64,000 bases of DNA from an uncultured delta proteobacterium. GTDB taxonomy: Bacteria > Myxococcota_A > Polyangia > Polyangiales > Houyiibacteriaceae. The notes under the pieces are model-generated. The model ran no database searches and was not told the origin of the DNA. It saw only the letters and a program-made list of their open reading frames with translations. The stretch lies in NCBI GenBank assembly GCA_963699755.1, contig CAVOVB010000002.1, positions 838,956-902,955 of the forward strand, given 5' to 3'. The position numbers and the translations under genes are program-made. This document shows positions 42,773 through 63,709 of this stretch, piece by piece (positions within the stretch are counted from its first letter, which is position 1; each line of letters begins with the position of its first letter).

Positions 42773-44782
42773 TTAATTGAAGAGCGTTCGTTCGCGGCGG
42801 TGGACTTGGATGATCGGGTTGCGGCCGAGGAGCCAGGTGGGGTCGTTGCCTGGGGGGAGGATTTGGAGGCGGCCGCCGTGCTCGCCTTCGAGGTGGCAAA
42901 AGGCGCAGGGGCTGGTGAGGTTGTCGGCGTCGTCGGTGCCGCCGTTGGCGCGGTACTGCACGTGGTGGAGGGTGACGTTGCGTTGGTGGCAGACGGGGTT
43001 GGTGCAGCGGTAGCGATCGCGGCGGTAGATCTGCTCCCATTTGTCCGAGGTGCCTAACTGGGGGACCCATGTTTGCCAGAAGGTCGTGCAGAGGAACTGG
43101 ATGAAGCTTTCGTCGGGGAAGTGCTTGCGGTGGAGGCGTTCGAGTTGGCGGTAGTGGAGGAGGAGATCGCCGGGGACGCGGATTCGCAACGTGATCTTGG
43201 CGGATGGACCTACGGATATCTGGACAGGTTCTTTCGCGGCCTCGTCTTCGGGGGTTACGGATATCTGGACAGTGGGATCGGGCGCGGGCGCGCGGGCCTC
43301 TTCTCTGCGGGCGGGTTCATGGGGTTCATGGCATCCGTCGCGGTCGGGTTCGGACAGCGGGTCGCGGATGACCCGGCGCAAGAGCTCGCCGCTGAGGATG
43401 GCGCGTTCGGCGGCTTCGACTTGTTGGAGCTGGGCTTCGCTTGGGGGTGAGCCGTCGGTCTCGCCCAAGAAGCGGGTGGCCATTTCTACGGCTTGAACTT
43501 CTTCGCGGAGGTGTTTGAAGGTGCGGCGGGTGGCGCGGGTGAGCCAGGCGCGTTCGGTTTCGGGGGTGGCGACGCGGGCGATGAGCTGGGCGGCTTCGAA
43601 GCCGATGCGGCCTTTTTGGAGGGCGTCGATGAGGTGGTCGAGGCGCTCGGTCCGGCGGGCGAGGCTGAGTTTGCTGCGGAGGGAGGCGCGCGAGATGCCG
43701 AGGCGTTCGCGCGCGTAGTGGGCTTCGCTGGCGAAGCCGAGGGCTTGCCAGCCGCGGAGGGCGAGGAAGCGTTGGGCGATGCGGCCGAAGAAGAGATCGC
43801 GACTGGCGAGCTCGGCGCTGTAGTGACGGATGCGGGTGTCGAGTGTTTCGATGCCCGTGGGGAGGTCACTCGGGTCGGGGGCCTCGCCTGGATCGGGATC
43901 GGTGGGGACCGCGGGGCGGCTTTGAAGCTCGGCTTCGGCTTGCAGGTGTTGGAGGCGTTGCATCTGCGCGCGCCACGCGGCGTGTTCGGCTTCGGCTTCT
44001 GTGGAGAAATTGTTTTCGGATGCCGGGATGAGCTCGAGCAGGGAGATGGTGGCTTCGGCGAGGAGGGATTCGAGGAAGTGGGCGCCGGTGGATTTGCCGT
44101 CCATGTGCTCGACCATCATGCGCGTGGCTTCGAGCGCCCAGGCTTCTTCGACGGGGAGCGTGAGGGAGAGCGTGCGCGTGAGGTCTTCGTCGTCATCAAG
44201 CTGCGGCTCCGGCGGTGAGGCTGGTGATTCTGTTGAGCGCGATGAGCCTGGTGAGCCCGGCGACTCTTGCGAGCTCAACGCGATGCGCATCGCCGCGACT
44301 GTCTTGTCGCGTGCAATCTGGAGGAGCGCGGCTTCGGTTTCGGGGGTGGCGTGGCGGGCGAGGAGCTCGGCCATGGACCAGCCGATGGCGCCGGCTTCGA
44401 GTGACTCTGTTAAACGAGGGAGCGATTGGAGGCGGCGTGCGAGGGTGCGGGTTTCGGCGGCCCAGCGACCGCCGCGATTGCAGCGCTCGAGTGCGTATGC
44501 GCCGAGGGTGGAGAAGCCGAGCTCGTGGATGCCTTCGCCGAGGCGGTGAAGCGCCTGGCCGATGCGCAGTCGGAGGCGGCCCGCGCCGCGGGCTAGGCGG
44601 TGGAGCTCGGCGTCGAGCTGGGTGAGATCGCCGAGCGTGCGAGGTGCTTGGGGCTGGGCGTGCTGGTTGTCTCGGGGTTGCTGGGGGCTTTGTTGAGGAG
44701 CTCTGGGGCGTGTGGACGGGGGCGAATGGCCGGGGATTGGGAGCAGGAGGGGCGTCGGGGAGTGCGAGGGGGAACTTCGCAT
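42773..44782 (-). CDS. Large HNH endonuclease (DUF222-like helical region + C-terminal HNH), copy 1
   Basis: RDRYRC..PVC..HHVQYRANGGTDD..NL...CAFCH...H. Confidence 0.9.
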   Translation of the reverse strand: MRSSPSHSPTPLLLPIPGHSPPSTRPRAPQQSPQQPRDNQHAQPQAPRTLGDLTQLDAELHRLARGAGRLRLRIGQALHRLGEGIHELGFSTLGAYALERCNRGGRWAAETRTLARRLQSLPRLTESLEAGAIGWSMAELLARHATPETEAALLQIARDKTVAAMRIALSSQESPGSPGSSRSTESPASPPEPQLDDDEDLTRTLSLTLPVEEAWALEATRMMVEHMDGKSTGAHFLESLLAEATISLLELIPASENNFSTEAEAEHAAWRAQMQRLQHLQAEAELQSRPAVPTDPDPGEAPDPSDLPTGIETLDTRIRHYSAELASRDLFFGRIAQRFLALRGWQALGFASEAHYARERLGISRASLRSKLSLARRTERLDHLIDALQKGRIGFEAAQLIARVATPETERAWLTRATRRTFKHLREEVQAVEMATRFLGETDGSPPSEAQLQQVEAAERAILSGELLRRVIRDPLSEPDRDGCHEPHEPARREEARAPAPDPTVQISVTPEDEAAKEPVQISVGPSAKITLRIRVPGDLLLHYRQLERLHRKHFPDESFIQFLCTTFWQTWVPQLGTSDKWEQIYRRDRYRCTNPVCHQRNVTLHHVQYRANGGTDDADNLTSPCAFCHLEGEHGGRLQILPPGNDPTWLLGRNPIIQVHRRERTLFN

Positions 44783-44808
44783 GATTACTGATATTTATAG
44801 CCTCGATA

Positions 44809-44824
44809 CTGAACGTTTGTAAAG
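44809..44824 (-). promoter_or_regulatory. LexA-box-like site overlapping a putative -35 of HNH copy 1
   Basis: CTTTAC-AAAC-GTTCAG; TTTACA-N18-TATAAA; the site is identical upstream of copy 2. Confidence 0.5.
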
Positions 44825-44915
44825 TGCTTTTTGGGGTTATCGGTCGATGTGGCCGGGCGTTGCGTGGGGTTGGTCGATTTGTGGGACGCGCGCGCGGCGG
44901 GGGGCGGCGACGAGG

Positions 44916-45683
44916 TCAGAACTTGCCGTTGTCGTTCTTCCACTCTGACTTCGGGGCGACTGGTTCGATTGTGTCCCAGTGCTCGACGACCTTTGCGTTT
45001 GCGAGGCTGAAGAGGTCGTAGAAGGCGGTGTGGACGCCGGCGAGGGTGCCTTCGCTGACGGTGAGGACGAATGAGCCCTCTGCGAGGATGCGGTGCAGGT
45101 GTTGGTAGTCGACGAGGGGGGCGCCGTCGTGCGCGGCTTCGAGCGCGGCCCTCCAGGCGGCGATGCCGTCGGTGAGATTGGGGTTGTGTTGGGCGAGCTC
45201 CGCATCGACGTAGCGGGGGAGCAGGTCTAGGCGACGGGGGATTAGGACGTCTTGCACGAGGTTGCGGACTAGGCGGCGGTTTTCGTCGGTGCGGTCGAGA
45301 TCCGTCGGGGTGGTTGGGCCGTCGACCATGCTGCGACCGGACGGGTTTGGGCCGCGACGGGGTTGGATGTTGTCCCAGTGTTCGACGGCCTGGTCCGCCT
45401 CGAAGCGAAACACCTCGAAACCGATTCGGCGTGTGGCAAAGTCGTACTCGGTGTGGGCGAAGACGAAGTCGCCGTCGGCGAAGGCACGAACGATGTTCAC
45501 GCGCGGGTTGGTCTTCGACAGGCGGGCGAAGAGCGCGGCCAGGCCTTCACTGCCTTCGTGCGTTTGCGGATTGTGCTGGATGTACTTCGACTCGTTGACG
45601 ACGGCCGCGGCAGCGGGGTCGCCTGTCTCGATGCCCTTTAGGAGCTTTCGGATTAGGTTCTTGCGTTGCTCGGGGGTGGTCAT
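44916..45683 (-). CDS. Tandem SnoaL/NTF2-like protein
   Basis: Two QHNP...EHWD repeats. Confidence 0.88.
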   Translation of the reverse strand: MTTPEQRKNLIRKLLKGIETGDPAAAAVVNESKYIQHNPQTHEGSEGLAALFARLSKTNPRVNIVRAFADGDFVFAHTEYDFATRRIGFEVFRFEADQAVEHWDNIQPRRGPNPSGRSMVDGPTTPTDLDRTDENRRLVRNLVQDVLIPRRLDLLPRYVDAELAQHNPNLTDGIAAWRAALEAAHDGAPLVDYQHLHRILAEGSFVLTVSEGTLAGVHTAFYDLFSLANAKVVEHWDTIEPVAPKSEWKNDNGKF

Positions 45684-45700
45684 GTGCGCCTGATAGGATT

Positions 45701-46093
45701 TCAGCGAGCCGCGCGCGGGCGTGCGGTATTGATTGCGGGGATGTCCCAGGCTTCTGCGAGGCGGCCGTCGACGATGCGCCAGACGACGACGGCGTCGATC
45801 TCGAGCGCGGTGCCTTCGAATGCCATGGTGTCGCGGACGTGGGCGACGACCAGCTCATCTCCGAAGGCTGTGACTGAGAGCGGTTCGACCGCGAAGGTGC
45901 CGCCCGTCCCGGCTCCTAGCTTGTCGAAGAAGGCTTGTAGGCCGGCGACACCGACGTAGTCGCCTTGGACATCCGGCAGGCGGGGGTTGAAGAAGTGCCA
46001 GACGAAGTCCTCCTCGAAGAGGTCCGCCCAGCTGGCGAGGTTGCCGAGGTCGACACGCTTCAGAAGGGAGACGTTTGGATGCTCTTCGGACAT
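45701..46093 (-). CDS. SnoaL/NTF2 family protein
   Basis: DLFEEDFVWH..VWRIVDGRLAEAWD. Confidence 0.85.
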   Translation of the reverse strand: MSEEHPNVSLLKRVDLGNLASWADLFEEDFVWHFFNPRLPDVQGDYVGVAGLQAFFDKLGAGTGGTFAVEPLSVTAFGDELVVAHVRDTMAFEGTALEIDAVVVWRIVDGRLAEAWDIPAINTARPRAAR

Positions 46094-46132
46094 GGCGGGC
46101 TCCTTGGGGTTGGGGCTAGCTAGGGGTTCCGC

Positions 46133-46504
46133 CTAGGTGAGCCTTGTTTGACTGGGAAACGAGATTTCGAGCACGAGGCAGCCTTCTTCGGTGCGGAAGG
46201 GGCCGTGGGGTTCGCCGGGTGGGCGGCTCGCGTAGTCGCCCTTCTCGAGCCAGCGATCGAAGGCGGCGTCGTAGAGGCTTCCTTCGACGATGAACACCTC
46301 TTCGGGGTAGTCGTGTGACTTGCTGCCAAAAGGGGTCGTGTCGGTGCCCGGGGCGAAGCGCGTGAGGCGGGTGTAGTCGCCGGACGCCTCGTCGATCGCG
46401 AGGGTGAGCTCTTCGGCCATGCCTTCGAGGCCTTCGATGGGTTGCCAGTCGCCGCGGTGCTCGTCCGAGAGCGGATTCCAATAGGTGCGTGTCGTCTTCG
46501 ACAT
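46133..46504 (-). CDS. Cupin-domain (ChrR-like) protein
   Basis: HDYPEEVFIVEG..RPPGEPHGPF. Confidence 0.85.
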   Translation of the reverse strand: MSKTTRTYWNPLSDEHRGDWQPIEGLEGMAEELTLAIDEASGDYTRLTRFAPGTDTTPFGSKSHDYPEEVFIVEGSLYDAAFDRWLEKGDYASRPPGEPHGPFRTEEGCLVLEISFPSQTRLT

Positions 46505-46640
46505 GGTGCGGAATGGTAGCTGAAGCCCTAGTCTTCATACACCTCGGACCTTCGGCGTGTCGAAGCCGTTCCAGCTCATGATGGTGGGCTCGGTTACGGT
46601 TTCTTGGCCCTACGCGTTCAATTGGTCCTTACGGACGTGC

Positions 46641-47048
46641 ATGAGGACAACTCCAACGCGAATTCTCCACTCCGCTCTGTTCTTGGGGCTGGTACTCGGT
46701 GGCTGCGGCAGTAGCTCAAACGGCGGCGGCGGCGGAACGGCTGGCTCGACCGGTGGCGCAGGCGGACAGGCCGGAAGCGCCGGAGCAGCTGGCGGTGGAG
46801 GGGTCGCCGGCGGGGGCGGCACGGCAGGCGGCGGAGGCAGCGGTTGCGCGACCAACGACGATTGCGACGCGGCGGACTACTGCGCCTCGGATGTCTCGTG
46901 CGACGAACCGGGAGAGTGCCTGGCACGACCGCTCACGTGCCCATTGGTGTTCGACCCGGTGTGCGGATGCAACGGCACGACGTACAGCAACTCATGCGAG
47001 GCTGCGGCCGCGGGTGTCAGGGTCGAGTTTGATGGGGCCTGTCCGTAG
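46641..47048 (+). CDS. Lipoprotein with Kazal-type domain
   Basis: LGGC lipobox; PVCGCNGTTYSNSCEA. Confidence 0.85.
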   Translation: MRTTPTRILHSALFLGLVLGGCGSSSNGGGGGTAGSTGGAGGQAGSAGAAGGGGVAGGGGTAGGGGSGCATNDDCDAADYCASDVSCDEPGECLARPLTCPLVFDPVCGCNGTTYSNSCEAAAAGVRVEFDGACP

Positions 47049-47068
47049 GGGTGGGCAGGCGCGGCCTG

Positions 47069-47917
47069 TTAGCTCGACCCGGTGCTCAGGAACTCGGAGA
47101 TGAGCTCGGCTACTCTCTGGGGTTCGTCTTCTTGAAGGAAGTGGCCGCAGTTGGGCAGCGCGGTGAGCTCGGCTTCGGGGTGGTCTTGTTGCAGACGGCG
47201 CATGGTTTGGGCGATGTCGGGGAGTGCGCGGTCGTTTTCGCCGTAGATGAGGCGGATGGTGCCTTGGTAGCCGGGGAGCGCGCGGGCGATTTGGGCGAGG
47301 CCGGCGGTGCCTAGGCCGGAGGCTGCTTTGAGGAGGGCTTTGCGCGCGGCGGGATCGGTGAAGGGGGCGGTGTACGGGGTGAGGACTTCGCGGTTGAGGC
47401 GGCCTTTGTTAACGACGCCGAGCTTCATCGCGGCGACGATGCCCTTGGGGCTCACGAGGTAATCGCGGAGGCCGGGCGTTTTCAGGGCGAGGAGGAAGAG
47501 CTTCACCGCCCAGGAAGTTTCCGGGTAGACCAAGGTGTTGAGCACGACGAGCTTTTGCACGCGGTGGGGGTGGCGAACCATCCAGTAGAGCCCGACGGGG
47601 CCGCCGAGGTCGTGCACGCAGAGGTGCGTGTCGCCGATGCCGAGCGCGTCGAGGAATGCGTCGAGCGTGTCGGCGTAGAAGTCGTAGTCGTACGCGGCGT
47701 CGAGGGGCTTATCGGAGAGGCCGTAGCCCGGCAGGTCGAGCGCGATGGCGCGATGGGTTTTGCCGAGCTCGGGGAGGATGTTGCGGTAGAGGTGGCTGCT
47801 GGTGGGGAAGCCGTGAAGGAGGAGGATGGGCGGGACGTTGGGATCGGGGGCGCCGGATTCTAGGTAGTGGAGGCGGAGGGACTTGGCTTGGGTGTAGTGG
47901 GAGATTGGGGCTGGCAT
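47069..47917 (-). CDS. Alpha/beta hydrolase (haloalkane dehalogenase-like), copy 1
   Basis: HGFPTSS; VHDLGG; GHFLQED. Confidence 0.9.
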   Translation of the reverse strand: MPAPISHYTQAKSLRLHYLESGAPDPNVPPILLLHGFPTSSHLYRNILPELGKTHRAIALDLPGYGLSDKPLDAAYDYDFYADTLDAFLDALGIGDTHLCVHDLGGPVGLYWMVRHPHRVQKLVVLNTLVYPETSWAVKLFLLALKTPGLRDYLVSPKGIVAAMKLGVVNKGRLNREVLTPYTAPFTDPAARKALLKAASGLGTAGLAQIARALPGYQGTIRLIYGENDRALPDIAQTMRRLQQDHPEAELTALPNCGHFLQEDEPQRVAELISEFLSTGSS

Positions 47918-47934
47918 TGGAAGGGAGAGGCTAC

Positions 47935-48140
47935 CACGTGGCGCGGGCAACAGGCCGCGCGGCCTTCGGGTTGGCCGCGGCCTTGCTCCGGCCTGCGCAG
48001 GGTGTGCACGCTGATCTCGAGGGCGCGCGCGAGCTCTTTTTTGGCTGAGGCCGACGTCGGCTTCGGTCCGCTCTCGAATCTCGAGATCGTCCGTCATCCA
48101 TGGACGAGGCCGGCTCTGTATTGCCGATGCACGCCGCGCT
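47935..48140 (-). pseudogene. Heavily deleted relic of the BrnT-like toxin / HTH antitoxin module
   Basis: MTDDLEIRE.TEAD joined to VGLSQK..ARALEISVHTLR; matches 61064-61420 with internal deletions. Confidence 0.75.
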
Positions 48141-48632
48141 TTACGGCAGCTTCCACTCGCCGTTCCAGTCGGACCAGCCCGCGCCGGTGTCGCCGATGAA
48201 GTTGCCTTGGAACTTCTGATTGCCTGTGATGCCTTCGTACTTGCCGGTCCCGCCTACGAAGCGTTCCGTGCCGGGGCATGCGGGCATCTTTCCGGAGCAC
48301 TGCCACTCGACGAAGATCGTGTCGCCATCGGCGTCGGTCACCACGCAAGTGCCTCTTGCATCGGCGTGTCCTTTGTTGACGTCGTTGTAGATCGAGCAGT
48401 CGACGCGGGACTTGTGCATGAAGCCCTTGCCCTTGTCGTTGAACATGACGCCGGGCACGATGCCGGCGTAGATCGTCCGGTCTTCTCCAAGCTTCTGGAT
48501 CTTCCCGGTGAAGGTCCAGCCGTAGTGACCGGAGTATTTCCCGCTCTTTGGTAGATCGCCCGCGTCGACGGACGAAGTGAAAGCGAGCGTGGCGAGTGCG
48601 AATAGCGATACGATGGAAATTGTGCGAGTCAT
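48141..48632 (-). CDS. Hypothetical secreted protein
   Basis: Signal peptide; GGTGKYEGITG motif; AGGAG RBS. Confidence 0.75.
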   Translation of the reverse strand: MTRTISIVSLFALATLAFTSSVDAGDLPKSGKYSGHYGWTFTGKIQKLGEDRTIYAGIVPGVMFNDKGKGFMHKSRVDCSIYNDVNKGHADARGTCVVTDADGDTIFVEWQCSGKMPACPGTERFVGGTGKYEGITGNQKFQGNFIGDTGAGWSDWNGEWKLP

Positions 48633-48897
48633 CGTTCTTGCTCCTTGTCCTAAACCAGTTTGATGGGCAGCGCCGGACGCGGCGTTTCGCGCTTGTGCGC
48701 GGAAGCCGCACGATCGCACCTTCGTGCTGGAATTCCTAGAGGCCCCCGTGAAGCGCCTTTAGGGAGGGGACACGGAGGGACCGCTCGCCGCTCGTTTGGG
48801 GCTTTGGCCAGGGCGTGCGTCCGTCTGTTCAGGTCTTTGCCTCACAGGAAGGGCGGTCTCGGTGACCGAGGGGGGGAAGAGGCCTTATCCTGATCGG

Positions 48898-49818
48898 ATG
48901 AGGATCTGGGGGGTCATTCTCGTGTTCGTCGGTGCGTGCGGGGACGGTTCGGGCAGCGACTGGACGTCGGCGCGAAGCGCGCCAAGCCTTTTCGCGGCGA
49001 TCGATGTGTGGGCGTTTGCGCCGACCGACGTGTGGGTCATCGACGGGAGCTCGAGCATCCAGCGCTTTGATGGCGACGGTTGGAGCGCGCTCGACACCGG
49101 GAGCAACGGCGGGCTTCAGTGCATCTTCGCGCTGTCGCCGACCGAGGTGTGGCTTTGCTCGGGCGGCGACCTCTTGTTCTACGATGGCGCGACGTTCGAG
49201 CCGATGAATGTGTCTCAGCCGACTGGGCTGAGCGGGCTGACCGACGTCTGGGCCTCTTCTCCGAACGACGTGTGGGCGGTGGGCGATGACGCCATCGTCG
49301 CCCACTACGACGGCAACGCGTGGGGGCGCACGATCGCCGGCTCACCGTTCAAGAGCTCGATCTGGGGCTCTGGGCCCAGCGATGTCTACACGCTTTCGAC
49401 GTTCGATCTCGTGCACTACGACGGATCGACTTGGACCGAAGTCGACCTCGACGCGGGCGCCGGCGACGGTCAAGTCTGGGGAACCAGCGCGAGCGACGTT
49501 TGGGTGATGTCGGACAGCTCCGAGCTCAGTCATTTCGACGGCGCGCAGTGGGAGACGATCGACACCTTCGACTTCGTCGGTGACTTGAGCGCGGTCTGGG
49601 GTCCTTCGCCGGACGACCTCTGGGCAGTGGGCAGCGCCGGCGCGATCGCGCACTACGACGGCAAGTCGTGGCGGCAAGTCGCGCATCAGAAGATCGGCGC
49701 GCCCTACCTACGCCTCTTCCTCGCCGTGCACGGAACGTCTTCGACCGACGTCTGGGCGGTTGGGCAACAGCTCGGCGAGGGCGGCTCGACGGGGCTGATT
49801 TTCCACTATCGGCCCTGA
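48898..49818 (+). CDS. Beta-propeller repeat lipoprotein
   Basis: Repeated VWG.S..DVWAVG..HYDG..W. Confidence 0.8.
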   Translation: MRIWGVILVFVGACGDGSGSDWTSARSAPSLFAAIDVWAFAPTDVWVIDGSSSIQRFDGDGWSALDTGSNGGLQCIFALSPTEVWLCSGGDLLFYDGATFEPMNVSQPTGLSGLTDVWASSPNDVWAVGDDAIVAHYDGNAWGRTIAGSPFKSSIWGSGPSDVYTLSTFDLVHYDGSTWTEVDLDAGAGDGQVWGTSASDVWVMSDSSELSHFDGAQWETIDTFDFVGDLSAVWGPSPDDLWAVGSAGAIAHYDGKSWRQVAHQKIGAPYLRLFLAVHGTSSTDVWAVGQQLGEGGSTGLIFHYRP

Positions 49819-49860
49819 GCGAGGCGGGACGTTGGCTTCGGTTGGATTGAAGGCGCGGTG

Positions 49861-50703
49861 TTAGTCCGACCTGGTGTTCAGGAACTCAGCGATCAGTTGC
49901 CCTACTCTTTTTGGTTCGTCTTCTTGAAGGAAGTGGCCGCAGTTGGGCAGCGCGGTGAGCCGGGCTTCGGGGTGGTCTTGTTGGAGGCGGCGCATGGTTT
50001 GGGCGATGTCGGGGAGCGCGCGGTCGTTTTCGCCGTAGATGAGGCGGACGGACGCTCCGTAGCCGGGGAGCGCGCGGGCGATTTGGGAGAGGCCGCCGAT
50101 GCCTAGGCTGGAGGCTGCTTTGAGGAGGGCTTTGCGCGCGGCGGGATCGGTGAAGGGGGCGGTGTACGGGGTGAGGACTTCGCGGTTGAGGCGGCCTTTG
50201 TTAACGACGCCGAGCTTCATCGCGGCGACGATGCCCTTGGGGCTCACGAGGTAATCGCGGAGGCCGGGCGTTTTCAGGGCGAGGAGGAAGAGCTTCACCG
50301 CCCAGGAAGTTTCCGGGTAGACCAAGGTGTTGAGCAGGACGAGCTTTTGCACGCGGTGGGGGTGGCGAACCATCCAGTAGAGCCCGACGGGGCCGCCGAG
50401 GTCGTGCACGCAGAGGTGCGTGTCGCCGATGCCGAGCGCGTCGAGGAATGCGTCGAGCGTGTCGGCGTAGAAGTCGTAGTCGTAGGTGACGTCGAGGGGC
50501 TTGTCAGAGAGGCCGTAGCCCGGCAGGTCGAGCGCGATGGCGCGATGGGTTTTGCCGAGCTCGGGGAGGATGTTGCGGTAGAGGTGGCTGCTGGTTGGGA
50601 AGCCGTGCAGGAGGAGGATGGGCGGGACGCGGGGATCGGGGGCGCCAGATTCTAGGTGGTGGAGGCGGAGGGACTTGGCTTGGGTGTAGCGGGAGGTTGG
50701 CAT
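49861..50703 (-). CDS. Alpha/beta hydrolase (haloalkane dehalogenase-like), copy 2
   Basis: Near-identical to 47069-47917. Confidence 0.9.
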   Translation of the reverse strand: MPTSRYTQAKSLRLHHLESGAPDPRVPPILLLHGFPTSSHLYRNILPELGKTHRAIALDLPGYGLSDKPLDVTYDYDFYADTLDAFLDALGIGDTHLCVHDLGGPVGLYWMVRHPHRVQKLVLLNTLVYPETSWAVKLFLLALKTPGLRDYLVSPKGIVAAMKLGVVNKGRLNREVLTPYTAPFTDPAARKALLKAASSLGIGGLSQIARALPGYGASVRLIYGENDRALPDIAQTMRRLQQDHPEARLTALPNCGHFLQEDEPKRVGQLIAEFLNTRSD

Positions 50704-50794
50704 TGGGGGGGGTGAGGGTACCATGGGGAGGCGCGTCGACTTTGTCCCTTGCTGCAGTCCGTGTGCGGTCAGTCGGTTGCGCTAGCGGCGCGAG

Positions 50795-53973: not shown

Positions 53974-53999
53974 GATTACTGATGTTTATAGCGTAGATA

Positions 54000-56438: not shown

Positions 56439-56447
56439 TGACGCGAC

Positions 56448-56867
56448 TCAGCGTGCGTTCGTGAATGGATTGAAGCACTCGATGTCGAGGGCTTCGACCT
56501 GGCGGACGTTGCGGGTGGCGAGGATGAGGCCGTGGACATGGGCGGTGGCAGCGAGGAGGCCATCGACCGTGGGGATGGGATTGGGCGCGCCCAGTTTGCC
56601 CCAGGTGCGTGCGATGGGGAGCGTCACGGGAAGGATCCGGTCTTCGAACTGAGTGCAGAGCCCGGAGAGCCAGCGGCGGAGGCGCGCGGCGGATTTTGGA
56701 TCGCGCTTGCGGATGCGCTCGATGCCGCGTTCGATTTCACCGACGACCAGCACGCTGAGGTAGGCGTCGGCTTCGTCGAGCGCGCCGAACCAGTCCCGGA
56801 CGGCGGAGTTGCAGCGGCTGCCCTTGCGAAGCTCGGAGACGACGTTGGTGTCAAGGAGATAGGCCAT
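56448..56867 (-). CDS. VapC/FitB PIN-domain toxin
   Basis: YLLDTNVVSE; DGLLAATA; TRN..NPF. Confidence 0.93.
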   Translation of the reverse strand: MAYLLDTNVVSELRKGSRCNSAVRDWFGALDEADAYLSVLVVGEIERGIERIRKRDPKSAARLRRWLSGLCTQFEDRILPVTLPIARTWGKLGAPNPIPTVDGLLAATAHVHGLILATRNVRQVEALDIECFNPFTNAR

Positions 56868-57087
56868 CGTCACGGTCGACGTCGCGCTCGATCGCGAAGT
56901 CGGCGTCGGCGCCGACATCGGGCATCGAGAGCAGCGCTTCTTTGAACGAGCGGCTCGGGCGGCCGAGCAGCACCTCGCGCAGGATCGCCCGATGCTCGGC
57001 CTCGGCCGACACCCCGTTCTTGGCCGCGCGCACCTTCAACGCGCGGACGACGGACTCTTCGAGCTCTCGGACGATGAGTTGGGCCAT
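56851..57087 (-). CDS. FitA-like RHH antitoxin
   Basis: MAQLIVR.L..ALKVRAA..G.S.EAE.R.IL. Confidence 0.9.
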   Translation of the reverse strand: MAQLIVRELEESVVRALKVRAAKNGVSAEAEHRAILREVLLGRPSRSFKEALLSMPDVGADADFAIERDVDRDDGLSP

Positions 57088-57095
57088 TTGCTGCT

Positions 57096-57112
57096 TGATA
57101 TCAATGATATCA
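57096..57112. promoter_or_regulatory. Putative FitAB-type operator
   Basis: TGATATCA-A-TGATATCA just upstream of the antitoxin start. Confidence 0.6.
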
Positions 57113-57192
57113 TTTGGAGTCCGGTTGTCAATGCTCACGACTGGCTATCGGACGGTGGTGGCGGAAGTTGCGCGATTGCGCGCGTCCGTGGC

Positions 57193-57780
57193 TCAGTGAG
57201 CGCCGTGCATCATCGAGGGGTCGTGGGCCTGGCCGGTTCGTGCCGTCCATGTTTCGGCGTCGACGACTTCCTGTCGGTAGGTGGAATAACAGCGCGTGCA
57301 GGCTTGCAGGGTGTCCGACGTGGCTCTCAAGACCGCTTGCGCATCGCGCGCGTCGGCGGCCTCACCGATCGCGTCGGCCTTGCGATGGAAATCGAGCGCC
57401 ATCTCCGTGAAGCCATCGGCGCCAGCGCCCATGTGCTCACACATCTGCTGCATCTGGGGAGATGACCCGATGCGGGCAGAGGCAACGCCGATCGCTTCCC
57501 AATCCTCGCGGGCGAGGCCGTCGCCGATGCGCTCAATCGCCACGAGGTGATCCTGCATGTTCTGCTTCTGGTGCCAGGCCATCATGGGCTGCAACGGCAC
57601 CGGGCGCCGAGGGTCGAGCGCATTGAGCTCGGAGACGGGCTGGCAGGCGTCGCTCGAAGCCGCCGGCACCCGAGCTTGATCGACTGGTTGTGCTGGCGTC
57701 GGTTTGCCTTCGCACGCTGTCATGAGAAGCGCGGCAAGCGCCGCCAACGTGTATCGCATGATGGGATTGTTCGAGCTCAT
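57193..57780 (-). CDS. Cytochrome c'-like lipoprotein with CxxCY in place of CxxCH
   Basis: MTAC lipobox; helical body; ACTRCYSTYRQ. Confidence 0.7.
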   Translation of the reverse strand: MSSNNPIMRYTLAALAALLMTACEGKPTPAQPVDQARVPAASSDACQPVSELNALDPRRPVPLQPMMAWHQKQNMQDHLVAIERIGDGLAREDWEAIGVASARIGSSPQMQQMCEHMGAGADGFTEMALDFHRKADAIGEAADARDAQAVLRATSDTLQACTRCYSTYRQEVVDAETWTARTGQAHDPSMMHGAH

Positions 57781-57820
57781 TGGGAAGGGGCCGTGGCATG
57801 GGGTGAGGGTAGCTCGCGCT

Positions 57821-58084
57821 CTACTCTTCGTACACCTCGCGGCGCTGGCCGATCTTTACGATCACCACGACATCGGGCGGCTCGATACGGTAGACCACGC
57901 GGTAGTCGCCGACACGGAGGCGGCGGGCGCCTCGGAGGCTGTAGCGGAGGGGCTTGCCGAGCTCGAAGGGGTGGGCGGCGAGCTTCTTTTCGATGGCGCG
58001 GCGTATTTGGTGTTTAGCCGACTTGGGGAGGGCGGGGATGTCGTCGGTGACGACGCTTCGCAGGTACTCGATGCGATAGGTCAA
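57821..58084 (-). CDS. RelE/StbE family toxin
   Basis: GKPL..L.G.RRLRVGDYRVVY; TTG start overlaps the antitoxin stop. Confidence 0.9.
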   Translation of the reverse strand: MTYRIEYLRSVVTDDIPALPKSAKHQIRRAIEKKLAAHPFELGKPLRYSLRGARRLRVGDYRVVYRIEPPDVVVIVKIGQRREVYEE

Positions 58085-58302
58085 TCCCACGCCTCATCGT
58101 GGGAGACCCGGCGCTGCTTCTTCTTCAGGCGCGCATCGGCCACCTTGGAGAAGTAGCGGTCTTCCTGGTACTCGAGAGCCTCTTCGATGAGGCGGAGGCT
58201 GGTCCGTGAAATCGACTCCTCGCACTCGTCTGCCAAGCGCTCGATGGCCGCGTACGTCGCGTCGTCGATCGTGATGTTGATTCGTTTCTTCTGGGTGGGC
58301 AT
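58081..58302 (-). CDS. Antitoxin of the RelE toxin
   Basis: RINIT RHH-like N-terminus; coupled to relE. Confidence 0.85.
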   Translation of the reverse strand: MPTQKKRINITIDDATYAAIERLADECEESISRTSLRLIEEALEYQEDRYFSKVADARLKKKQRRVSHDEAWD

Positions 58303-58526
58303 TTGCATAGTGTAACACTTTTGCATCACTTGGAGCGCGCCGCACGGGCGCGCGCCGAAGGCGCGCGTTCCTTCCGCTAGCTCGGATCACCGCGCCATCG
58401 ACACCGGACTCCCGGATATCTGGACAGAGGCATCGGGTTCGGGCGCGCTGGCCTTTTCTTTGCCGGCGCGTCTATCGTGTTCACTGGGTGCGGGTCGTCA
58501 GTGGGTCCTGTGTCGATTGAAGCGTC

Positions 58527-58826
58527 TCACGTCGCGAGCTTGGGAAGAGGCTTGGGGAGCTTCGAGATGCGCTTTGCGGCTTCGTAGAGGTCGACGGCGC
58601 GTTGCGCGGCGAGCCAGAACTCGGCGGTGGTGTCGAATGCGGCGGCGAGCTTCAGGGCCATCTCGGCGGTGACGGCGGTGCGGCCGTTGACGATGCGGTT
58701 GATGACCTTGATGTCGCAGCCGAGGTGATCGGCGAGAGCCTTCTGGGTCAGGCCGAGCGGCTCGAGGTATTCCTCATGGAGGATTTCGCCAGGTGTGGTG
58801 GGCTTGCGGTTGATTTTTCGTATCAC
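58527..58826 (-). CDS. higA: HigA family antitoxin
   Basis: TPGEILHEEYLEPLGLTQ..MALKLA..FW...Q. Confidence 0.92.
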   Translation of the reverse strand: MIRKINRKPTTPGEILHEEYLEPLGLTQKALADHLGCDIKVINRIVNGRTAVTAEMALKLAAAFDTTAEFWLAAQRAVDLYEAAKRISKLPKPLPKLAT

Positions 58827-58840
58827 GGTGCCGAGCTCCT

Positions 58841-59128
58841 TCAGTGGTAGTCGACGATGTCGACATCGGCTGGGCCGTTGGGTGTCCAGCGGAAGATGAT
58901 GCGCCACTGGTCGTTGATGCGGATGGCGTGAAGACCGCGCATGCGCCCCTTCAGCGCCTTGAGGCGGTTGCCCGGTGCGTTGAGGTCCCGAAGCGAGCCG
59001 GCGTAGTGCAGGATGTCTAGCTTTCGAATCACGACTCTTTGGAGCAAGGCCCATCCAACGGGCCTGGTGAGGGTTTGGTTTGCGAAGAATTCTTTGACCA
59101 CGCGGCTCTTGAAACTCTGAATCGCCAC
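58841..59128 (-). CDS. higB: HigB family toxin
   Basis: PGNRL.ALKG..IRINDQWRIIFRW..DIVDYH. Confidence 0.92.
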   Translation of the reverse strand: MAIQSFKSRVVKEFFANQTLTRPVGWALLQRVVIRKLDILHYAGSLRDLNAPGNRLKALKGRMRGLHAIRINDQWRIIFRWTPNGPADVDIVDYH

Positions 59129-59134
59129 GCAGTC

Positions 59135-59153
59135 TATACCTTATGATGGTATA
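59135..59153. promoter_or_regulatory. Putative higBA operator
   Basis: Inverted repeat TATACC-N7-GGTATA. Confidence 0.55.
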
Positions 59154-59394
59154 CCTTGCTTAGGCATGGATCAAGCAGAAAGCCATGTGGCCCCGCCGCG
59201 GTACCGGGCTGCAGTTTGGGTTTCGTCATCGATGGGTTATCGGCCAGCGGCGTCGGGAGTTGCGCGTGTGCGGGCGCCACGGGCGCGCGCTGGAGGCGCG
59301 CGTTCCTTCGGCTAGCTTGAATCACGGCGCGATCGACGCTGGACCCACGGATATCTGGACCGAGTGGCTACGTTGGTTCCGGTAAGCGGAGGGC

Positions 59395-59622
59395 TCAGCG
59401 CTTGGCGAGGTCAGCCAGGACGTCGGCGGCGAGGCGCCCTTCCCCGGCTTGGAACGAGGCCCATGCTTGCCCGATGGCGGCGTGGAGCGCGGCGCGCTCG
59501 GCCTCGTCGAGACTGTCACCCGCGTCGTCGATGACGAGATCGAGCTCGGTGCCTTCGGGAAGGTCCGTCGGCGCGTCCACGATGAGACGGCCGTTCCGAA
59601 CTCGGGCGCGAATCGTCGACAT
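59395..59622 (-). CDS. Putative antitoxin; toxin partner absent
   Basis: ARVRNGRL..PTDLPEGTEL; C-terminal G.G..A.DVLA.L tail; scaffold follows. Confidence 0.65.
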   Translation of the reverse strand: MSTIRARVRNGRLIVDAPTDLPEGTELDLVIDDAGDSLDEAERAALHAAIGQAWASFQAGEGRLAADVLADLAKR

Positions 59623-59699
59623 CATGGTGAGAGTAGCACGCGACCTTGGGTGGGCCTAGCGCGTGTGGGACCCACGGATATCTGGACAGAGGTGGGCTT

Positions 59700-60044
59700 C
59701 TACTTCTTCCTACGGCGTGTGCGTGGCGCTTTGGTCGTCGGCTTCTTCGGTGACGCGGCGTTGAGCTCGAGGCGAAGACCGAGGGCGGCGACGTACTTCT
59801 CTAGCGTGGAGACGCGGACGTCGTGGCCGGACTCGAGGCGGCTCACGATGGCTGCGGAGGTTTGCATGAGGGCGGCGACTTGGGTTTGGGTTTTGCCACT
59901 CGAGCGCCGGCGTTCGGCCATTTGGCGGCCAAACGCCAACCGCGCTTCCACGTCGGCCACCATGGCAGCGAACCCTGGCTCGCGCGCGTCGCGCTCGGCG
60001 ATGTAACGTTCGAGGTCGTCTCTTGGTTTCGATTGGCGTGCCAT
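59700..60044 (-). CDS. XRE-HTH antitoxin
   Basis: TQTQVAALMQTSAAIVSRLESG..TLEKYVAALG. Confidence 0.88.
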   Translation of the reverse strand: MARQSKPRDDLERYIAERDAREPGFAAMVADVEARLAFGRQMAERRRSSGKTQTQVAALMQTSAAIVSRLESGHDVRVSTLEKYVAALGLRLELNAASPKKPTTKAPRTRRRKK

Positions 60045-60090
60045 TGTTTTTATCACATTTAGTATGCCTTTTGTGAGATGGCAATCCGGG

Positions 60091-60250
60091 TCAGCGCTTC
60101 GCTGCCCTGCCCCTGCTTCGCCAGTCCGCGAGGCGGCGCTCGGCGAGCTCGATGATGCGAGCTGGGGTCCTTTGGGTCTTCTTCGTGAAAGCTTCGAGGG
60201 CCAGCAGGACCTGCTGGGCCCTTCCCTCGGGGCTGAACAGCACCCGAAAC
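60091..60250 (-). pseudogene. 5'-truncated Gp49-like RelE toxin
   Basis: RVLF..LLALEAFTKKTQRTP..IELAERR; the upstream half is replaced by scaffold. Confidence 0.8.
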
Positions 60251-60617
60251 GGTTTCGCAGAACCGCCATCGTCTCCGGTGCATGGTTGCTTATCGGCCAG
60301 CGGCGCCGGAAGTTGCGCGTGTGCGCGCGCCCGCGGCGCGCGCCGAAGGCGCGCGTTCGGACTCCCGGATATCTGGACAGCGTTGCCTTCGTCTCCGGGA
60401 CTCACGGATATCTGGACAACAGCATCGCGCTCGGGCGCGCCGGCCTCTTTTTTGCCGGCGCGTCCATCGGGTTTATTGCGCTCGCCGACTCCCGGATATC
60501 TGGACTGGGGTGGCTTCGGTTGCAGTTAGGTTGTCAAGGAACGATCGGACCCGCTTGGCACCCGAAGCGGTTTCGTAGAACCGCCAGCGCCTGCGGTGCA
60601 TGGTTGGTTATCGGGCG

Positions 60618-60683
60618 CCGCCAGACGTAGCCAGCTGCTGCAGCGATGTCATCGAACGCGCGAGGCGTGATGACGATTCGCAC
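60618..60683 (-). pseudogene. ParE-like toxin N-terminal stub
   Basis: GTG overlapping the upstream stop; MRIVITPRAFDDIAAAAGY, then scaffold. Confidence 0.6.
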
Positions 60684-60895
60684 TACTCGAGGCTTGCTTT
60701 GAGCTTGGCGAATGCTTCGTCGCGTGAGAGGCCCTCCCCCGCACGCACCGACGCCATCGCGGCCTCGAAGCCGGCCTCTTGCTCTTCGGTGAGCTCAGGG
60801 GGCTCGTCGATGGGGACGAGCACGTAGCGGCCCTTCTCGAGGGCTTTGAGCTCTTCGGGAACGTCGACGCCGTTCCAGTTCACGATGACGGCCAT
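60683..60895 (-). CDS. Putative antitoxin
   Basis: 70 aa; LTEEQEAG..A.ASVRAGEG; coupled to the ParE-like stub. Confidence 0.65.
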   Translation of the reverse strand: MAVIVNWNGVDVPEELKALEKGRYVLVPIDEPPELTEEQEAGFEAAMASVRAGEGLSRDEAFAKLKASLE

Positions 60896-61063
60896 GGGCA
60901 AAGCATACCTTCCCTCTTGCTTGGGTTCGAGGAGTGGGTTGGGCATGCTTGGTTATCGGACGCCGGCGGCGGAAGTTGCGTGATTGCGCGCCCGTGGTGC
61001 GTGCTAGAGGCGCGCGTTCGTTCGGACTCCGGGATATCTGGACTGGGGGGTTCTGGTGAACGG

Positions 61064-61387
61064 TTATCGGCTCTTCGCCTTGGCTGGGGATGGGCCGCGG
61101 CCTGCTGCACCGCGAATGATGTTGGGGTGACGGGCTGCGATTTTGAGAAGCGCGATGGCGGGGCCTTCGGGTTGGCGGCGGCCTTGCTCCCAGTTGCGCA
61201 GGGTGTGCACGCTGATCTCGAGGGCGCGCGCGAACTCTTTTTGGCTGAGGCCGACGAAGCGCCGGAGCAGAACGATGTCTCTACCAGACTCGATCCGTCC
61301 CTCGCGGATGCGTCGCCTGACCGGCGCGGGAATCATCCGCCGGAAATCGGCTTCTGTCAGCTCGCGAATGTCGAGGTCGTCAGTCAT
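61064..61387 (-). CDS. XRE-HTH antitoxin (paralogue of 54131-54457)
   Basis: Highly similar protein. Confidence 0.9.
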   Translation of the reverse strand: MTDDLDIRELTEADFRRMIPAPVRRRIREGRIESGRDIVLLRRFVGLSQKEFARALEISVHTLRNWEQGRRQPEGPAIALLKIAARHPNIIRGAAGRGPSPAKAKSR

Positions 61388-61512
61388 CAGTAGAAGAAAC
61401 CCGCTTTGTATTGGCGATAGCGTTCGCGCGGTTTCGCGTCTTCGAACCGTACGCCGTGCTTTCGTTGGTTGGCATCGTTCTTCGCGTGATCCCACCCGAA
61501 GCGGATCGACAT
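61387..61512 (-). pseudogene. BrnT-family toxin with central deletion (41 aa)
   Basis: MSIRFGWDHAKNDANQRKHGVRFEDAKP fused to the 3' end. Confidence 0.8.
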
Positions 61513-61814
61513 TGGAAGTGTCGCCTTTCAAGAGGGGTAAGTCAATGGCTTACCCTCGGGCTTGGGGCCGGACTTGCCGGCGGGACTCCCGGATATCTGG
61601 ACAGCTTCGTCCCGCGCCTCGTGTTCGGGGTCACGGATATCTGGACAGGAGGGGCTCCTACATCGGCGGCTTCAGTGGTAGTTAGGTTGTCAAGGAACGA
61701 TTCGACCGGCTTGGCCCACGAAACGATTTTGTAGAACCCGCATCGTCTGCGGTGCATGTTTGGTTGTCGGACGGTGGCGGTGAGAGTTGTGTGCTTTCGT
61801 TCGAACTCGAAGCC

Positions 61815-62375
61815 GTGTTGGTTCTTCATTGCACACAGAAGCTATTGCGGGCGGCGGGGGAGCGCGGAACGGGGCAAGTCCCCGACGCAGATCCACTCGA
61901 CTCGTGGCATGCGAACCTCTTTCACTGGGAGCGGCGCAAGTGCGTCATCGTCGTGAACGATCGCACGCTCTTTCCGGTCCTCCTTTTCGGGGTGAAGAAG
62001 CCACAGCTCTCGGACCTTCCTCGTACATTCACGGAGCGGTTTTGCTCATTGCTGCACGAGCGAAAGGTGCCGGCTTACGTCGTTGACCACGTGCGTCAGC
62101 TCTACAGCGAAGCCCATCTCGCCACCACGAGCGACCGAAGCGTCACGGGCTCGCTCAACCAGCTCGTCTACGAGCTGAAATGGGTGGTGGCCAACCACCG
62201 AGTCGCCAGTCCGACCTTGGGGACCCGAGAGGTCGACGAGTTCCTTTGGGCTTGGGCCTCCCTTCAGATCCCGGAGTTCCGCGTCGCCGAGGCTTTGACC
62301 GATCGATTCCTCGCTCGGTTCGTCGAGTCCGGCCGTCCAGATCTTGCGCAAGCTAGGGAGATGCTCCCCCGCTAG
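61815..62375 (+). CDS. DUF6933-like hypothetical protein
   Basis: LHCTQKLL..SWHANLF..RRKC..VND.TL..T.DRSV.GSLN. Confidence 0.7.
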   Translation: MLVLHCTQKLLRAAGERGTGQVPDADPLDSWHANLFHWERRKCVIVVNDRTLFPVLLFGVKKPQLSDLPRTFTERFCSLLHERKVPAYVVDHVRQLYSEAHLATTSDRSVTGSLNQLVYELKWVVANHRVASPTLGTREVDEFLWAWASLQIPEFRVAEALTDRFLARFVESGRPDLAQAREMLPR

Positions 62376-62486
62376 GTCGATCACGCAGATAAGGTCTCCC
62401 AACGTGCATTGGCCTGAAGGGGCGCAGCTCCCCTGCGCGAATCGACGCCATCGCGGCTGGCGGACATCCTGTCGGCTCTGCTTTGG

Positions 62487-62810
62487 TTACGCCGAGGCGG
62501 CGGCGCCGATTGCCCTGCCCACTTGCTTTCGGTTTACGCCGAGGGCGAGGAGGGTGCGGATGAGGAGGTCGACGGAGACGCTTGGGTCGCCGGCTTCCAT
62601 TTTGGCGACGCGGGATTGGCTGGAGCCGATGAGGTCGGCGACTTGGGTTTGGGTGTAGCCGAGGCTCTCTCGGCGCTTCCTGAGTAGCGCGGCCAGGGAG
62701 AGCTGGAGCTCGATGTACTCGGCTTCCTCGTCGGTGAGGCCGAGGAAGTCCTTGGCGGAGCCGAATCTCCACCCCTGGGCCTCGAGCCGACGTCGTTTTG
62801 ATTCCTTCAT
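62487..62810 (-). CDS. XRE-HTH antitoxin
   Basis: GW..GSAKDFLGL..TQ..A..GSSQSRVAKMEAGDPSVS. Confidence 0.9.
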   Translation of the reverse strand: MKESKRRRLEAQGWRFGSAKDFLGLTDEEAEYIELQLSLAALLRKRRESLGYTQTQVADLIGSSQSRVAKMEAGDPSVSVDLLIRTLLALGVNRKQVGRAIGAAASA

Positions 62811-63157
62811 CGGAAGCCTCCCTCGGGGCCCTCGTCGTAGCGCCGTAGGCGGCGCGAGGCACGCCGGATCGCCGTGGTCGGCGTGCCGCGAGTCTTCTTC
62901 GAGAACGCATCCACGACGACAATCGCATCGGCATCGAGGCGGTAGATGATCCGCCACGTTTGGCCTCGTTCGTGATCCGGAATGCGCAGCTCATGGCAGC
63001 GCGGGCCGATCGAGGGCATGGGTCGTGATTCAGGCATGGAAAGTGTTTCGCCTCTTTGCAGTCTCCTCAGAAGCAATCCAGCTCGCTTTCGCGCCTCGGC
63101 CGAGAAGGCAGGACTCCGCACCGTCTCGCCGAGCCAAACGAGCGGCTTATCCGGCAT
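62807..63157 (-). CDS. Gp49-like RelE/ParE toxin
   Basis: SRPMPSIGPRCHELRI..WRIIYR..FSKKT. Confidence 0.9.
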   Translation of the reverse strand: MPDKPLVWLGETVRSPAFSAEARKRAGLLLRRLQRGETLSMPESRPMPSIGPRCHELRIPDHERGQTWRIIYRLDADAIVVVDAFSKKTRGTPTTAIRRASRRLRRYDEGPEGGFR

Positions 63158-63173
63158 GAAGCCAGGTTTCTTC

Positions 63174-63191
63174 TATGTCATATTCGACATA
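63174..63191. promoter_or_regulatory. Putative TA operator
   Basis: Inverted repeat TATGTC-N6-GACATA. Confidence 0.55.
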
Positions 63192-63709
63192 GACTTGCAA
63201 CCGAAATGTCATGATTCTTCGTCATGGGAGTTCTCGGTCGCTTGCGCGCGAAGTTGCGCGATTGCGTGCGCCCGCGGCGCGCGCCGAAGGCGCGCGTTCC
63301 TTCCGTCCGCTAGCTTGGCTCACGGTGCGGTCGACGCCGGACTCCCGGATATCTGGACAACGTTGCCTTCGTCGTTGGGACTCACGGATATCTGGACAGC
63401 GGGGACGTTGTCTTCGGGGGTCACGGATATCTGGACAGTCGTATTGGGCTCGGGCGCGCCGGCCCCTCCGTTGCCGGCGCGTCCCTCGCGCTCATTGCGT
63501 GCAGTTTCGGCTTCTCGACTCCCGGATATCTGGACTGGCGTGGCTGCGTCGCTTTCGGTGGGTCGGACGCGAGGTTGGGGTTCGGTTGTCAAGGAACGCT
63601 TGGACTGGGTTGGCGCCCGGACCGAGCTCGTAGAACCGCCATCGGCTGCGGCGCATGGTTGGTTATCGGACGATGGCAGCTGGAGTTGCGTGCTTTCGTT
63701 GACTTCGCG

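Follow-up and report, generated by a model that had tools for sequence, protein, structure and literature searches.

A short DNA site carried inside an HNH nuclease gene family and repeated through a neighbouring toxin-antitoxin array in an uncultured delta proteobacterium

Why would twelve nucleotides be kept almost letter for letter both inside protein-coding genes and in the spaces between genes? The question is raised by a 64,000-nucleotide stretch of an uncultured delta proteobacterium (GenBank assembly GCA_963699755.1, contig CAVOVB010000002.1, positions 838,956 to 902,955; hereafter the window), in which a first-pass annotation made from the letters alone had reported 19 co-oriented copies of a short core, some within two HNH nuclease genes and others intergenic. 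We verified all 19 starts; all lie on the plus strand, 18 are exact and the one at 52478 has a single mismatch, and the minus strand of the window has no copy even when two mismatches are allowed. By chance, an exact core is expected 0.005 times per window and 0.41 times per genome. The genome-wide count that the annotation had proposed found 18 exact copies in the 5.35-Mb assembly, every one inside the window; allowing one mismatch gave 25 matches, of which the 6 outside the window are dispersed single near-matches. Because the HNH genes lie on the minus strand, the functional reading of the core is GTCCAGATATCC, that is GTC CAG ATA TCC, or Val-Gln-Ile-Ser (VQIS). Five copies lie within the two HNH genes and 14 between genes, so the core is indeed both coding and intergenic. 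The genes and their own copies are as follows:

42773..44782, minus strand: HNH gene 1, 669 residues (Pfam HNH match, AlphaFold2 model, fold matches, internal repeat)
43214..43270, minus strand: two in-frame cores of gene 1 (43214, 43259), 45 bp apart, from the motif search
51992..53973, minus strand: HNH gene 2, 78% identical to gene 1, 5' part frameshifted
52433..52534, minus strand: three in-frame cores of gene 2 (52433, 52478 with one mismatch, 52523)

The annotation had the copy numbers of the two genes right (two and three), but the second gene has a frameshift that lies after its ATG (53973) and before the conserved body. Contigs publicly available from run X1 agree with parts of the region to within 0-6 differences, and one of them spans the copy at 59349; X1 is possibly the source sample, so that a gross assembly error is only weakly excluded.

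The annotation had suggested that selection acts on the nucleic acid, and we found that the codons are not free in homologues. In 53 VQIS motifs from 26 genes, Val is always GTC, Gln always CAG (37% elsewhere) and Ser always TCC (24% elsewhere), and Ile is ATA in 43 of 53 cases against 1 of 401 elsewhere. Close homologues, however, are kin, and other invariant columns keep rare codons too (CGA in 22/26 at one Arg); the mean codon homozygosity of these 90 columns, which include three motif columns, is 0.77. Since kinship weakens the codon evidence, we ran a core-blind test, in which intergenic places were located through their 20-nt flanks alone. Of 46 such places, 38 had a perfect core, 3 had one mismatch and 5 were unrelated chance matches. 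The core mismatch was 0.6% (41 places) or 1.6% (42 places) against 16% in the immediate flanks, which makes the cores some ten to twenty-five times better kept. Thus, the core is near-invariant amid variable sequence, as first described, and the intergenic copies do not decay with their surroundings. With codons constrained in the genes and cores outlasting their flanks between them, these comparisons show that the site is held at the DNA level in both places.

An improbable alternative is that VQIS, or QMS, is a protein motif whose gene fragments have been scattered, with the cores conserved through recent copying or gene conversion. That the intergenic pieces are linker-derived and that kin share codons would fit it, as would the paralogues of genome G280, which are 97% identical in the coding region with promoters less alike, as after conversion. 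The core-blind result largely refutes it, and the rare ATA, the fixed TCC and the preference for Met over Leu or Val at the second motif position, which an ANN codon rule predicts, all argue in the same direction; moreover, the site clusters of two distant genomes (G609 and G472a) share just ~10-14 nt with their gene. The two G280 copies (L070 and L072, at C1:3694 kb and 1254 kb) are alike from the -35 box to the stop and have unrelated flanks, and each carries a second, inverted site inside.

The constraint extends well beyond the window's relatives. In 96 delimited linkers, drawn from 147 representatives at 50% identity, the pattern Q, ANN-coded residue, S, GNN-coded residue occurs in 64, compared with a mean of 3.6 and a maximum of 11 in shuffles; where Q-x-S-y is found, x is ANN-coded in 79/103 cases and y GNN-coded in 87/103. 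The DNA site S[AGC]GAT[GAC]TCCG, mostly as CAGATGTCCG, is carried in the same linker by 23 of 27 distant genes, and the Ser codon is TCC in 39/49 distant motifs against 141/844 elsewhere. The exact 12-mer is present in 35 of 88 family genomes and at least once in 28 of 54 other genomes of the genus, and is clustered only in the window's genus. The core had been called quasi-palindromic; in the explanation that we favour, the 12-mer is the lineage version of a family-wide double-stranded site (S-[AGC]-GAT-[GAC]-TCCG), an imperfect inverted repeat with GGA/TCC halves. The reading with the best support is that the nuclease gene holds a site of its own, and this reading extends across the phylum. 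In the linker of P0015, the peptide CPDIR precedes VQIS and may be the core read out of frame; if so, it would mean that the site is kept regardless of frame. A conserved peptide motif such as VQIS or QMSG can, then, be a DNA site in disguise, which is a warning for annotation.

Extra copies outside the gene were found beside five of the 27 distant genes (G609, G472a, G656b, G356 and G251), with 15 extra sites in G609 against 0.5 expected, 5 in G656b and 3 in G251. The variant outside matches the variant within the gene, except for a one-base difference in L007. In the 7.7-Mb genome G609, tandem site pairs are confined to 519-528 kb, around the gene; at this locus (L140, C19), four intergenic regions contain clusters, in inverted orientation upstream of the gene and in direct orientation downstream of it. 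In L150 (G472 C22, the G472a locus), ten tandem units of 64-71 bp lie 250-850 nt upstream of the HNH gene, with the site on the opposite strand. In G356, a member of another family, four copies of the variant particular to it are interspersed with toxin-antitoxin (TA) genes upstream of the HNH gene. The same TA array (L074:500-5400) also contains repeated 23S_rRNA_IVP four-helix genes with long CTGATCCTGTTC-type microsatellites on their flanks.

What, then, of the regular spacing, and of the three roles (binding site, recombination core or RNA repeat) between which the annotation had not chosen? It had given the spacings correctly (45 bp within the two HNH genes; 39 or 44 bp for the intergenic clusters, where it had missed further gaps of 88 and 99 bp), but there is no fixed period. 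Gaps within genes of relatives are 39, 42, 45, 51, 63 and 105, all 15 of them multiples of three; gaps between genes range over 16-99, and 22 of 34 are multiples of three while 12 are not. What lies between the copies is kin to the gene linker, and three of the four intergenic inter-core pieces in the window still read VTPEDNVPA, VSPNDEGNV and VSPGDEGNA. The shuffle control for this kinship is weak, as identities were computed relative to the shorter piece. Judging from these gaps and this kinship, the 39/45 spacing is a tandem duplication of a 13-15 codon linker unit and no repeat-spacer structure. We also rejected CRISPR-like spacers (the annotation had proposed a phage and plasmid search): the pieces are linker kin, no phage match was found, the 63300-63560 cluster gave plasmid matches only at E 0.8, and viral contigs held no tandem core. 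A structured RNA was likewise rejected, with no Rfam match and unexceptional folding of nine spacers.

It seems very improbable that the copies are the repeats of a guide-RNA array or the site of some chromosomal regulator. The ten regularly spaced units of G472a and the uniform orientation in the window's genus are what such a reading would expect. Against it stand the absence of an Rfam match in the window region and seven related loci, folding z-scores of -2.0 to +1.6, inter-core pieces that are mutually kin and match no phage, the occurrence of the site in either orientation in G609 and in G656, a search for Nop and RuvC domains that found neither, and the restriction of the copies to 20 kb of 5.35 Mb, unlike a host site. 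Of the three proposed roles a double-stranded binding site fits best, and the RNA repeat finds no support.

A binding site calls for a binding protein, and the HNH protein itself is the candidate. The AlphaFold2 model of the gene 1 product (mean predicted local distance difference test score, pLDDT, 76; N-terminus disordered) comprises two helical repeats, 38% identical (E 4e-13), with ParB/KorB-like helix-turn-helix (HTH) character at about residues 50-174 and 311-440, a split ribbon-helix-helix (RHH) with strand-helix-helix halves at residues 202-250 and 529-575, and a zinc-finger HNH at residues 592-635. VQIS lies in a disordered linker (residues 474-525) directly before the second RHH half. 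The HTH region matched Spo0J (Z 6.0, root-mean-square deviation 2.3 over 91 residues), KorB (5.5-5.6), ParB (5.4) and also Noc, and the RHH halves together matched AvtR (Z 5.2), a ribbon-helix-helix protein. The matches to Spo0J, KorB, ParB and Noc are consistent but weak, as is that to the RHH fold (Z 5.2-6.0 against a caution line of 8; Foldseek E 2.6, and no Foldseek match of the gene 1 model at E<=0.001), which counts against this reading. In the model the final VQIS forms a short strand, which leaves room for some protein constraint on the motif. We consider it quite probable that the HNH protein recognises the site by means of its paired HTH domains, its RHH domain or both. A profile of the HNH protein retrieved 2301 cluster representatives at E<=1e-10. 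Among 55 diverse homologues, PF01844 (HNH) was found in 53, the HNH His, Asn and Cys columns are invariant or nearly so, and PF17762 gave a weak match in two; only the HNH part of the protein resembles IscB or McrA. VQIS occurs 1-5 times per protein in 109 of the best 120 close homologues. Full-length homologues were not found in plasmids, and viral contigs gave HNH-domain matches only.

Around the two genes we found features that the first-pass annotation had left out altogether: a shuffled TA array, a second promoter-type motif that we call box2, a LexA-like box and a strand bias in composition. The array reads as follows:

44916..51817, minus strand: cargo block between the HNH genes, with two SnoaL open reading frames (ORFs), a cupin, a Kazal-repeat ORF (plus strand), two alpha/beta hydrolases 90% alike, a beta-propeller-like ORF (plus strand) and a CE2 esterase
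54131..54853, minus strand: box2 (54826-54853), broken BrnT-like toxin ORF and XRE/MqsA-like antitoxin (54131-54457)
55007..55919, minus strand: box2 (55892-55919) and TacA-GNAT toxin-antitoxin pair
55958..55969, minus strand: intergenic core, 55 nt past the end of an OmdA/YdeI-like ORF
56448..57171, minus strand: box2 (57144-57171) and FitA-PIN (VapBC-type) pair
57821..58305, minus strand: small antitoxin-like ORF and ParE/RelE toxin
58414..58425, minus strand: intergenic core, 102 nt past the HigA stop
58527..59263, minus strand: box2 (59236-59263) and HigB-HigA pair
59349..59687, minus strand: intergenic cores 59349 and 59676 flanking a small ORF, the latter 13 nt past an XRE stop
60289..60505, minus strand: box2 (60289-60316), GC-rich stem module and cores 60367, 60406 and 60494, joined to the 5' stub of a Gp49-type toxin gene
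60952..61043, minus strand: core 61032 (21 nt past an XRE stop) and box2 (60952-60979)
61591..61646, minus strand: two cores, 44 bp apart
61752..62375, plus strand: DUF6933 ORF, opposite-strand cargo
62487..63257, minus strand: box2-like site (63230-63257) and Gp49 toxin-XRE antitoxin pair
63347..63689, minus strand: cores 63347, 63386, 63425 and 63524 and box2 (63662-63689); the contig ends at 64000

The TA modules and fragments lie upstream of gene 2. Seven relatives draw on the same module pool, at ~75-98% identity and in different orders, and the modules of the cargo block recur in them, shuffled. Module orientation is kept in 62 of 62 shared-module matches while order differs. In the window's genus, 62 extra cores lie upstream of the last gene copy and none on the opposite strand (the gene end was located in 20 of 22 sequences); 6 cores scored as downstream in fact precede or lie in a further gene copy that the scoring overlooked. 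The core position is included in 38 of 48 gene-derived fragments outside genes. In G050, a three-core insertion of ~120 nt splits a TA operon that is intact in G071, and the strain junctions at 59688, 61649 and 61652 directly follow cores. We saw no clear element ends or target duplications, homology starting at the -35 box and stopping at or near the stop codon. No PF00589 match was found within 400 kb of the array or among 145 ORFs around the arrays of relatives; a TIGR02249 search of five genomes, which had no positive control, found none. Taken together, these alignments show that the extra copies are linker-derived and restricted to the neighbourhood of the gene, and that at the genus level they punctuate an upstream, orientation-locked, shuffled TA and cargo array without a detectable integrase. 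In L064 (G068 C7, ~553995-554133), a mini-derivative lacks the gene body: its LexA-like box and start region run directly into two cores. The hydrolase copies of the cargo block (47069-48097 and 49861-50724) are ~90% alike, and an XRE antitoxin gene fragment precedes the first. An IS4-type DDE transposase gene (27570-28970) lies 14 kb downstream of the HNH genes, with no link to the cores seen.

Could a tyrosine recombinase acting in trans have built such an array? In this integron-like reading, which we judge improbable, box2 (GCAAC-N15-CCGATAAC) would be the crossover site and the HNH gene a passenger cassette. TA modules are shuffled and orientation-locked, many homology blocks begin 20-36 nt before box2, and a sister motif of box2 precedes excisionase, integrase and mobilisation genes at 12-13 other places in the genome, all of which favour it. 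Box2, however, is a direct repeat without an attC-type inverted pair, the folding of the spacers is not unusual, no tyrosine recombinase was found within 400 kb, and box2 is missing from the distant loci that carry the core. We rejected the attC/integron and dif/Xer readings, since there are no inverted boxes and no dif-like match. Box2 precedes most modules and both HNH genes, its spacer is fixed in 53 of 74 sites, and an ATG follows it by 5-7 nt in 36 of 57, as in a leaderless-mRNA promoter; it looks like an alternative-sigma promoter rather than a crossover site. The geometry fits a sigma28 promoter, but no FliA was found over the cut-off in the genome. The sister motif, (G/A)CAAC-TTTT-G-rich-CAAAA-CCGATAA, often lies 3-7 nt before a start codon and is probably a shared promoter of integrative elements; in G000 it stands at C1:463177, C1:1566083, C1:1570427, C1:1224721, C1:1951225, C3:1903, C3:19409, C5:79476, C6:152621, C8:3820, C8:211583, C10:2282 and C11:84833.

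The promoter-type motifs of the HNH genes themselves are:

44809..44824, minus strand: LexA-like box CTTTACAAACGTTCAG, overlapping a sigma70-type -35 upstream of gene 1
44836..44863, minus strand: box2 (GCAAC-N15-CCGATAAC) upstream of gene 1
54000..54015, minus strand: LexA-like box upstream of gene 2
54027..54054, minus strand: box2 upstream of gene 2

In 21 of 24 genes, some of them distant, the LexA-like box CTTKACA-nnn-GTTCAG coincides in part with the -35, and one recA is also preceded by a box of this kind. The motif has the GTTCAG half of the Myxococcus xanthus SOS box, as given in the accessible text of PMC9705874. Two points tell against LexA control: the box departs from the M. xanthus LexA consensus at 4 of 17 positions, and a search upstream of the lexA gene of the window's own genome found none. 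On balance, we think it rather likely that LexA releases the HNH gene under DNA damage.

The last of the overlooked features is compositional:

42001..64000, no strand assigned: strand-biased domain, plus strand G/T-rich and gene strand C/A-rich

At fourfold sites, none of the other long ORFs, 2319 in all with the two HNH genes, is as C/A-biased as these two (-0.70 and -0.68; mean -0.08, standard deviation 0.09). Cargo genes average -0.33 on the gene strand (n=39) and +0.09 on the other (n=31), counts in which kin are not independent; because cargo on the two strands shifts in opposite directions, it is the DNA strand rather than the gene that the bias follows. If contig C2 continues into C1, a join inferred from synteny with G072 within a repeated module, the bias begins ~90 kb upstream, peaks at the genes and weakens downstream. 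The profile has the same shape in G071, G072 and G074, and in G071 and G038 the TetR-region orthologues, which there lie away from the HNH gene, are free of skew; the PEPCK gene, used as a synteny control, gave no orthologue in five genomes. On the same inferred join, we regard a replication-terminus effect as unlikely, because dnaA is ~0.99 Mb away from the position so deduced and the local bias has the opposite sign to the weak replichore bias. Deamination of a displaced strand leaves a G+T excess. The G/T excess of the antisense strand is what a deaminated, displaced antisense strand would be expected to leave. In G000, the domain spans ~170 kb (C2:800000-902955 plus C1:1-68000), with a bias that opposes a weak replichore bias and flips near C1:68 kb; strong C/A bias is also found in genes at C1:14.6-60 kb and at C2:822 kb.

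How might these features belong together? It seems to us an evenly balanced possibility that an SOS-induced protein binds its own site, nicks nearby DNA and so drives local copying and cassette shuffling. LexA would be cleaved and the HNH gene expressed; the protein would load on its own in-gene site, with a predicted preference for GTCCAGATATCCG over a synonymous recode; and the HNH domain would nick DNA in cis. Small HNH domains of phages are strand-specific nickases, according to the part of PMC3592412 available to us. Strand displacement primed at the nick, followed by recombinational repair, would then copy linker patches and duplicate, delete and reorder upstream modules; intact cores would be re-used and hence preserved, and addictive TA modules retained. 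For the steps of cis nicking and nick-primed copying we put the chances at even or slightly below. The G+T-rich antisense strand and the upstream-only array fit displacement synthesis that runs upstream from the gene, displacing the antisense strand in the one-ended geometry of rolling-circle capture, here by an HNH enzyme. A damage-induced diversifying element, in which a self-loading HNH nickase builds an integron-like TA and cargo array with no integrase or transposase, is a tentative reading that we hold possible rather than probable.

Several observations weigh against this mechanism. The junctions are patchy and without a fixed base, many of them near box2 or inside genes. The HNH genes of G037 and G038, from the same genus, carry a single core and lack an array, and their skew is slight or absent; the skew continues downstream of the HNH genes, if weaker, and in distant genes it ranges from -0.55 to +0.47. 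No extra cluster accompanies 22 of the 27 distant loci, and among the five with clusters only G356 has a TA array. The G609 gene sits amid housekeeping genes, with sites on both sides in opposite orientation. In an alternative account, which we judge unlikely, the protein binds its sites only to silence or titrate itself, by KorB-like looping between in-gene and nearby sites; the TA array would be a common plastic region that RecA reshuffles between repeats, and the nuclease target would lie elsewhere. ParB/KorB-like HTH and RHH are repressor-type folds, the G609 and G472a clusters are intergenic and beside the gene with no cargo array, and in several arrays sites lie 60-160 nt before box2. 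Such an operator array would leave unexplained the linker-centred, gene-derived patchwork, the insertion into the TA operon of G050, and the upstream-only polarity and strand bias.

We compared the locus with known systems. The closest are the DUF222/REP13E12 genes (PF02720), to which the HNH protein appears to be related: these are multi-copy, with a helical N-terminal region and a C-terminal HNH, and PF02720 matches 4 of the 55 homologues (best E 1.4e-6). As far as the accessible parts of PMC3381160, PMC13157036 and PMC13061034 describe them, mycobacterial 13E12/DUF222 genes are LexA-bound and are hotspots of inversion and gene conversion; recombination hotspots are described for M. tuberculosis, and the repeats are termed of undefined function. 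One of their traits recurs here, the zinc-finger HNH with intact catalytic residues; LexA control through the box described above may be a second. The window proteins differ in having no PF02720 match and a duplicated HTH region, and the accessible accounts of the family mention no in-gene DNA site accompanied by copies close by and by a cassette array. Nor did we find a description of such a site or array in the literature covered, which excluded subscription papers.

Chromosomal integrons, as presented in the available text of PMC3108266, are similar in their shuffled, orientation-locked, TA-rich small modules beside an enzyme gene with a LexA box. Here, in contrast, no IntI was found and the nearest PF00589 match is more than 400 kb away; core and box2 are direct repeats without the inverted R''/R' hairpin boxes of attC; junctions are imprecise, modules bring their own promoter-like box, and the HNH nuclease gene contains the repeat. 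ISCR/IS91 elements have a LexA-controlled enzyme, as the locus putatively does, and one-sided capture of adjacent DNA (PMC13393415, in the part accessible), and the strand bias fits single-strand displacement, but the enzyme here is an HNH, no HUH (Y1/Y2) family was among the Pfam or NCBIfam matches of the 55 homologues, no oriIS/terIS hairpin ends are definable, and plasmids and viruses did not yield the element. In its working the locus seems to resemble an SOS-controlled integron or an ISCR element, and it fails their defining enzyme and site tests.

ParB/KorB-parS and iteron-initiator systems are alike in the HTH of ParB/KorB/Noc type, for which the fold match here is weak, and in tandem quasi-palindromic sites in and near the gene. 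The origin of phage lambda lies inside its O gene. Lambda O binds iterons, as stated in the available part of PMC3017604. ParB-parS differs in that the 55 homologues have no Pfam match to the ParB CTPase (ParBc), and there is no ParA partner, a nuclease is present and the site is unlike parS. REP-RAYT and TIGR-Tas systems also pair an enzyme gene with short repeats alongside; unlike REP-RAYT, the locus has no HUH transposase and its repeats are not genome-wide. From TIGR-Tas, as outlined in the accessible text of PMC12045711, the locus differs in having no Nop domain, box C/D or spacer units; from CRISPR, in that its inter-core pieces are homologous linker DNA and no Cas family was found; and with IscB/OMEGA it has only the HNH stretch in common, matching NF040563 at 28.5 bits against a cut-off of 175, with no RuvC and no Rfam match.

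We conclude that the DNA-selected, family-wide self-site with its lineage-specific cassette array is real; the gene is probably a variant within a known, functionally unexplained family. DUF222/13E12-type HNH genes are widespread, and the site gives them a precise candidate substrate inside the gene itself; because that substrate is written in the gene, the activity of the family is testable with one protein and one oligonucleotide. Self-targeting, if true, would also account for the recombination hotspots that DUF222/13E12 genes form in other bacteria. Should the shuffling model also hold, the array would represent an integrase-free integron analogue under SOS control, and its enzyme a natural single-chain, site-specific nickase.

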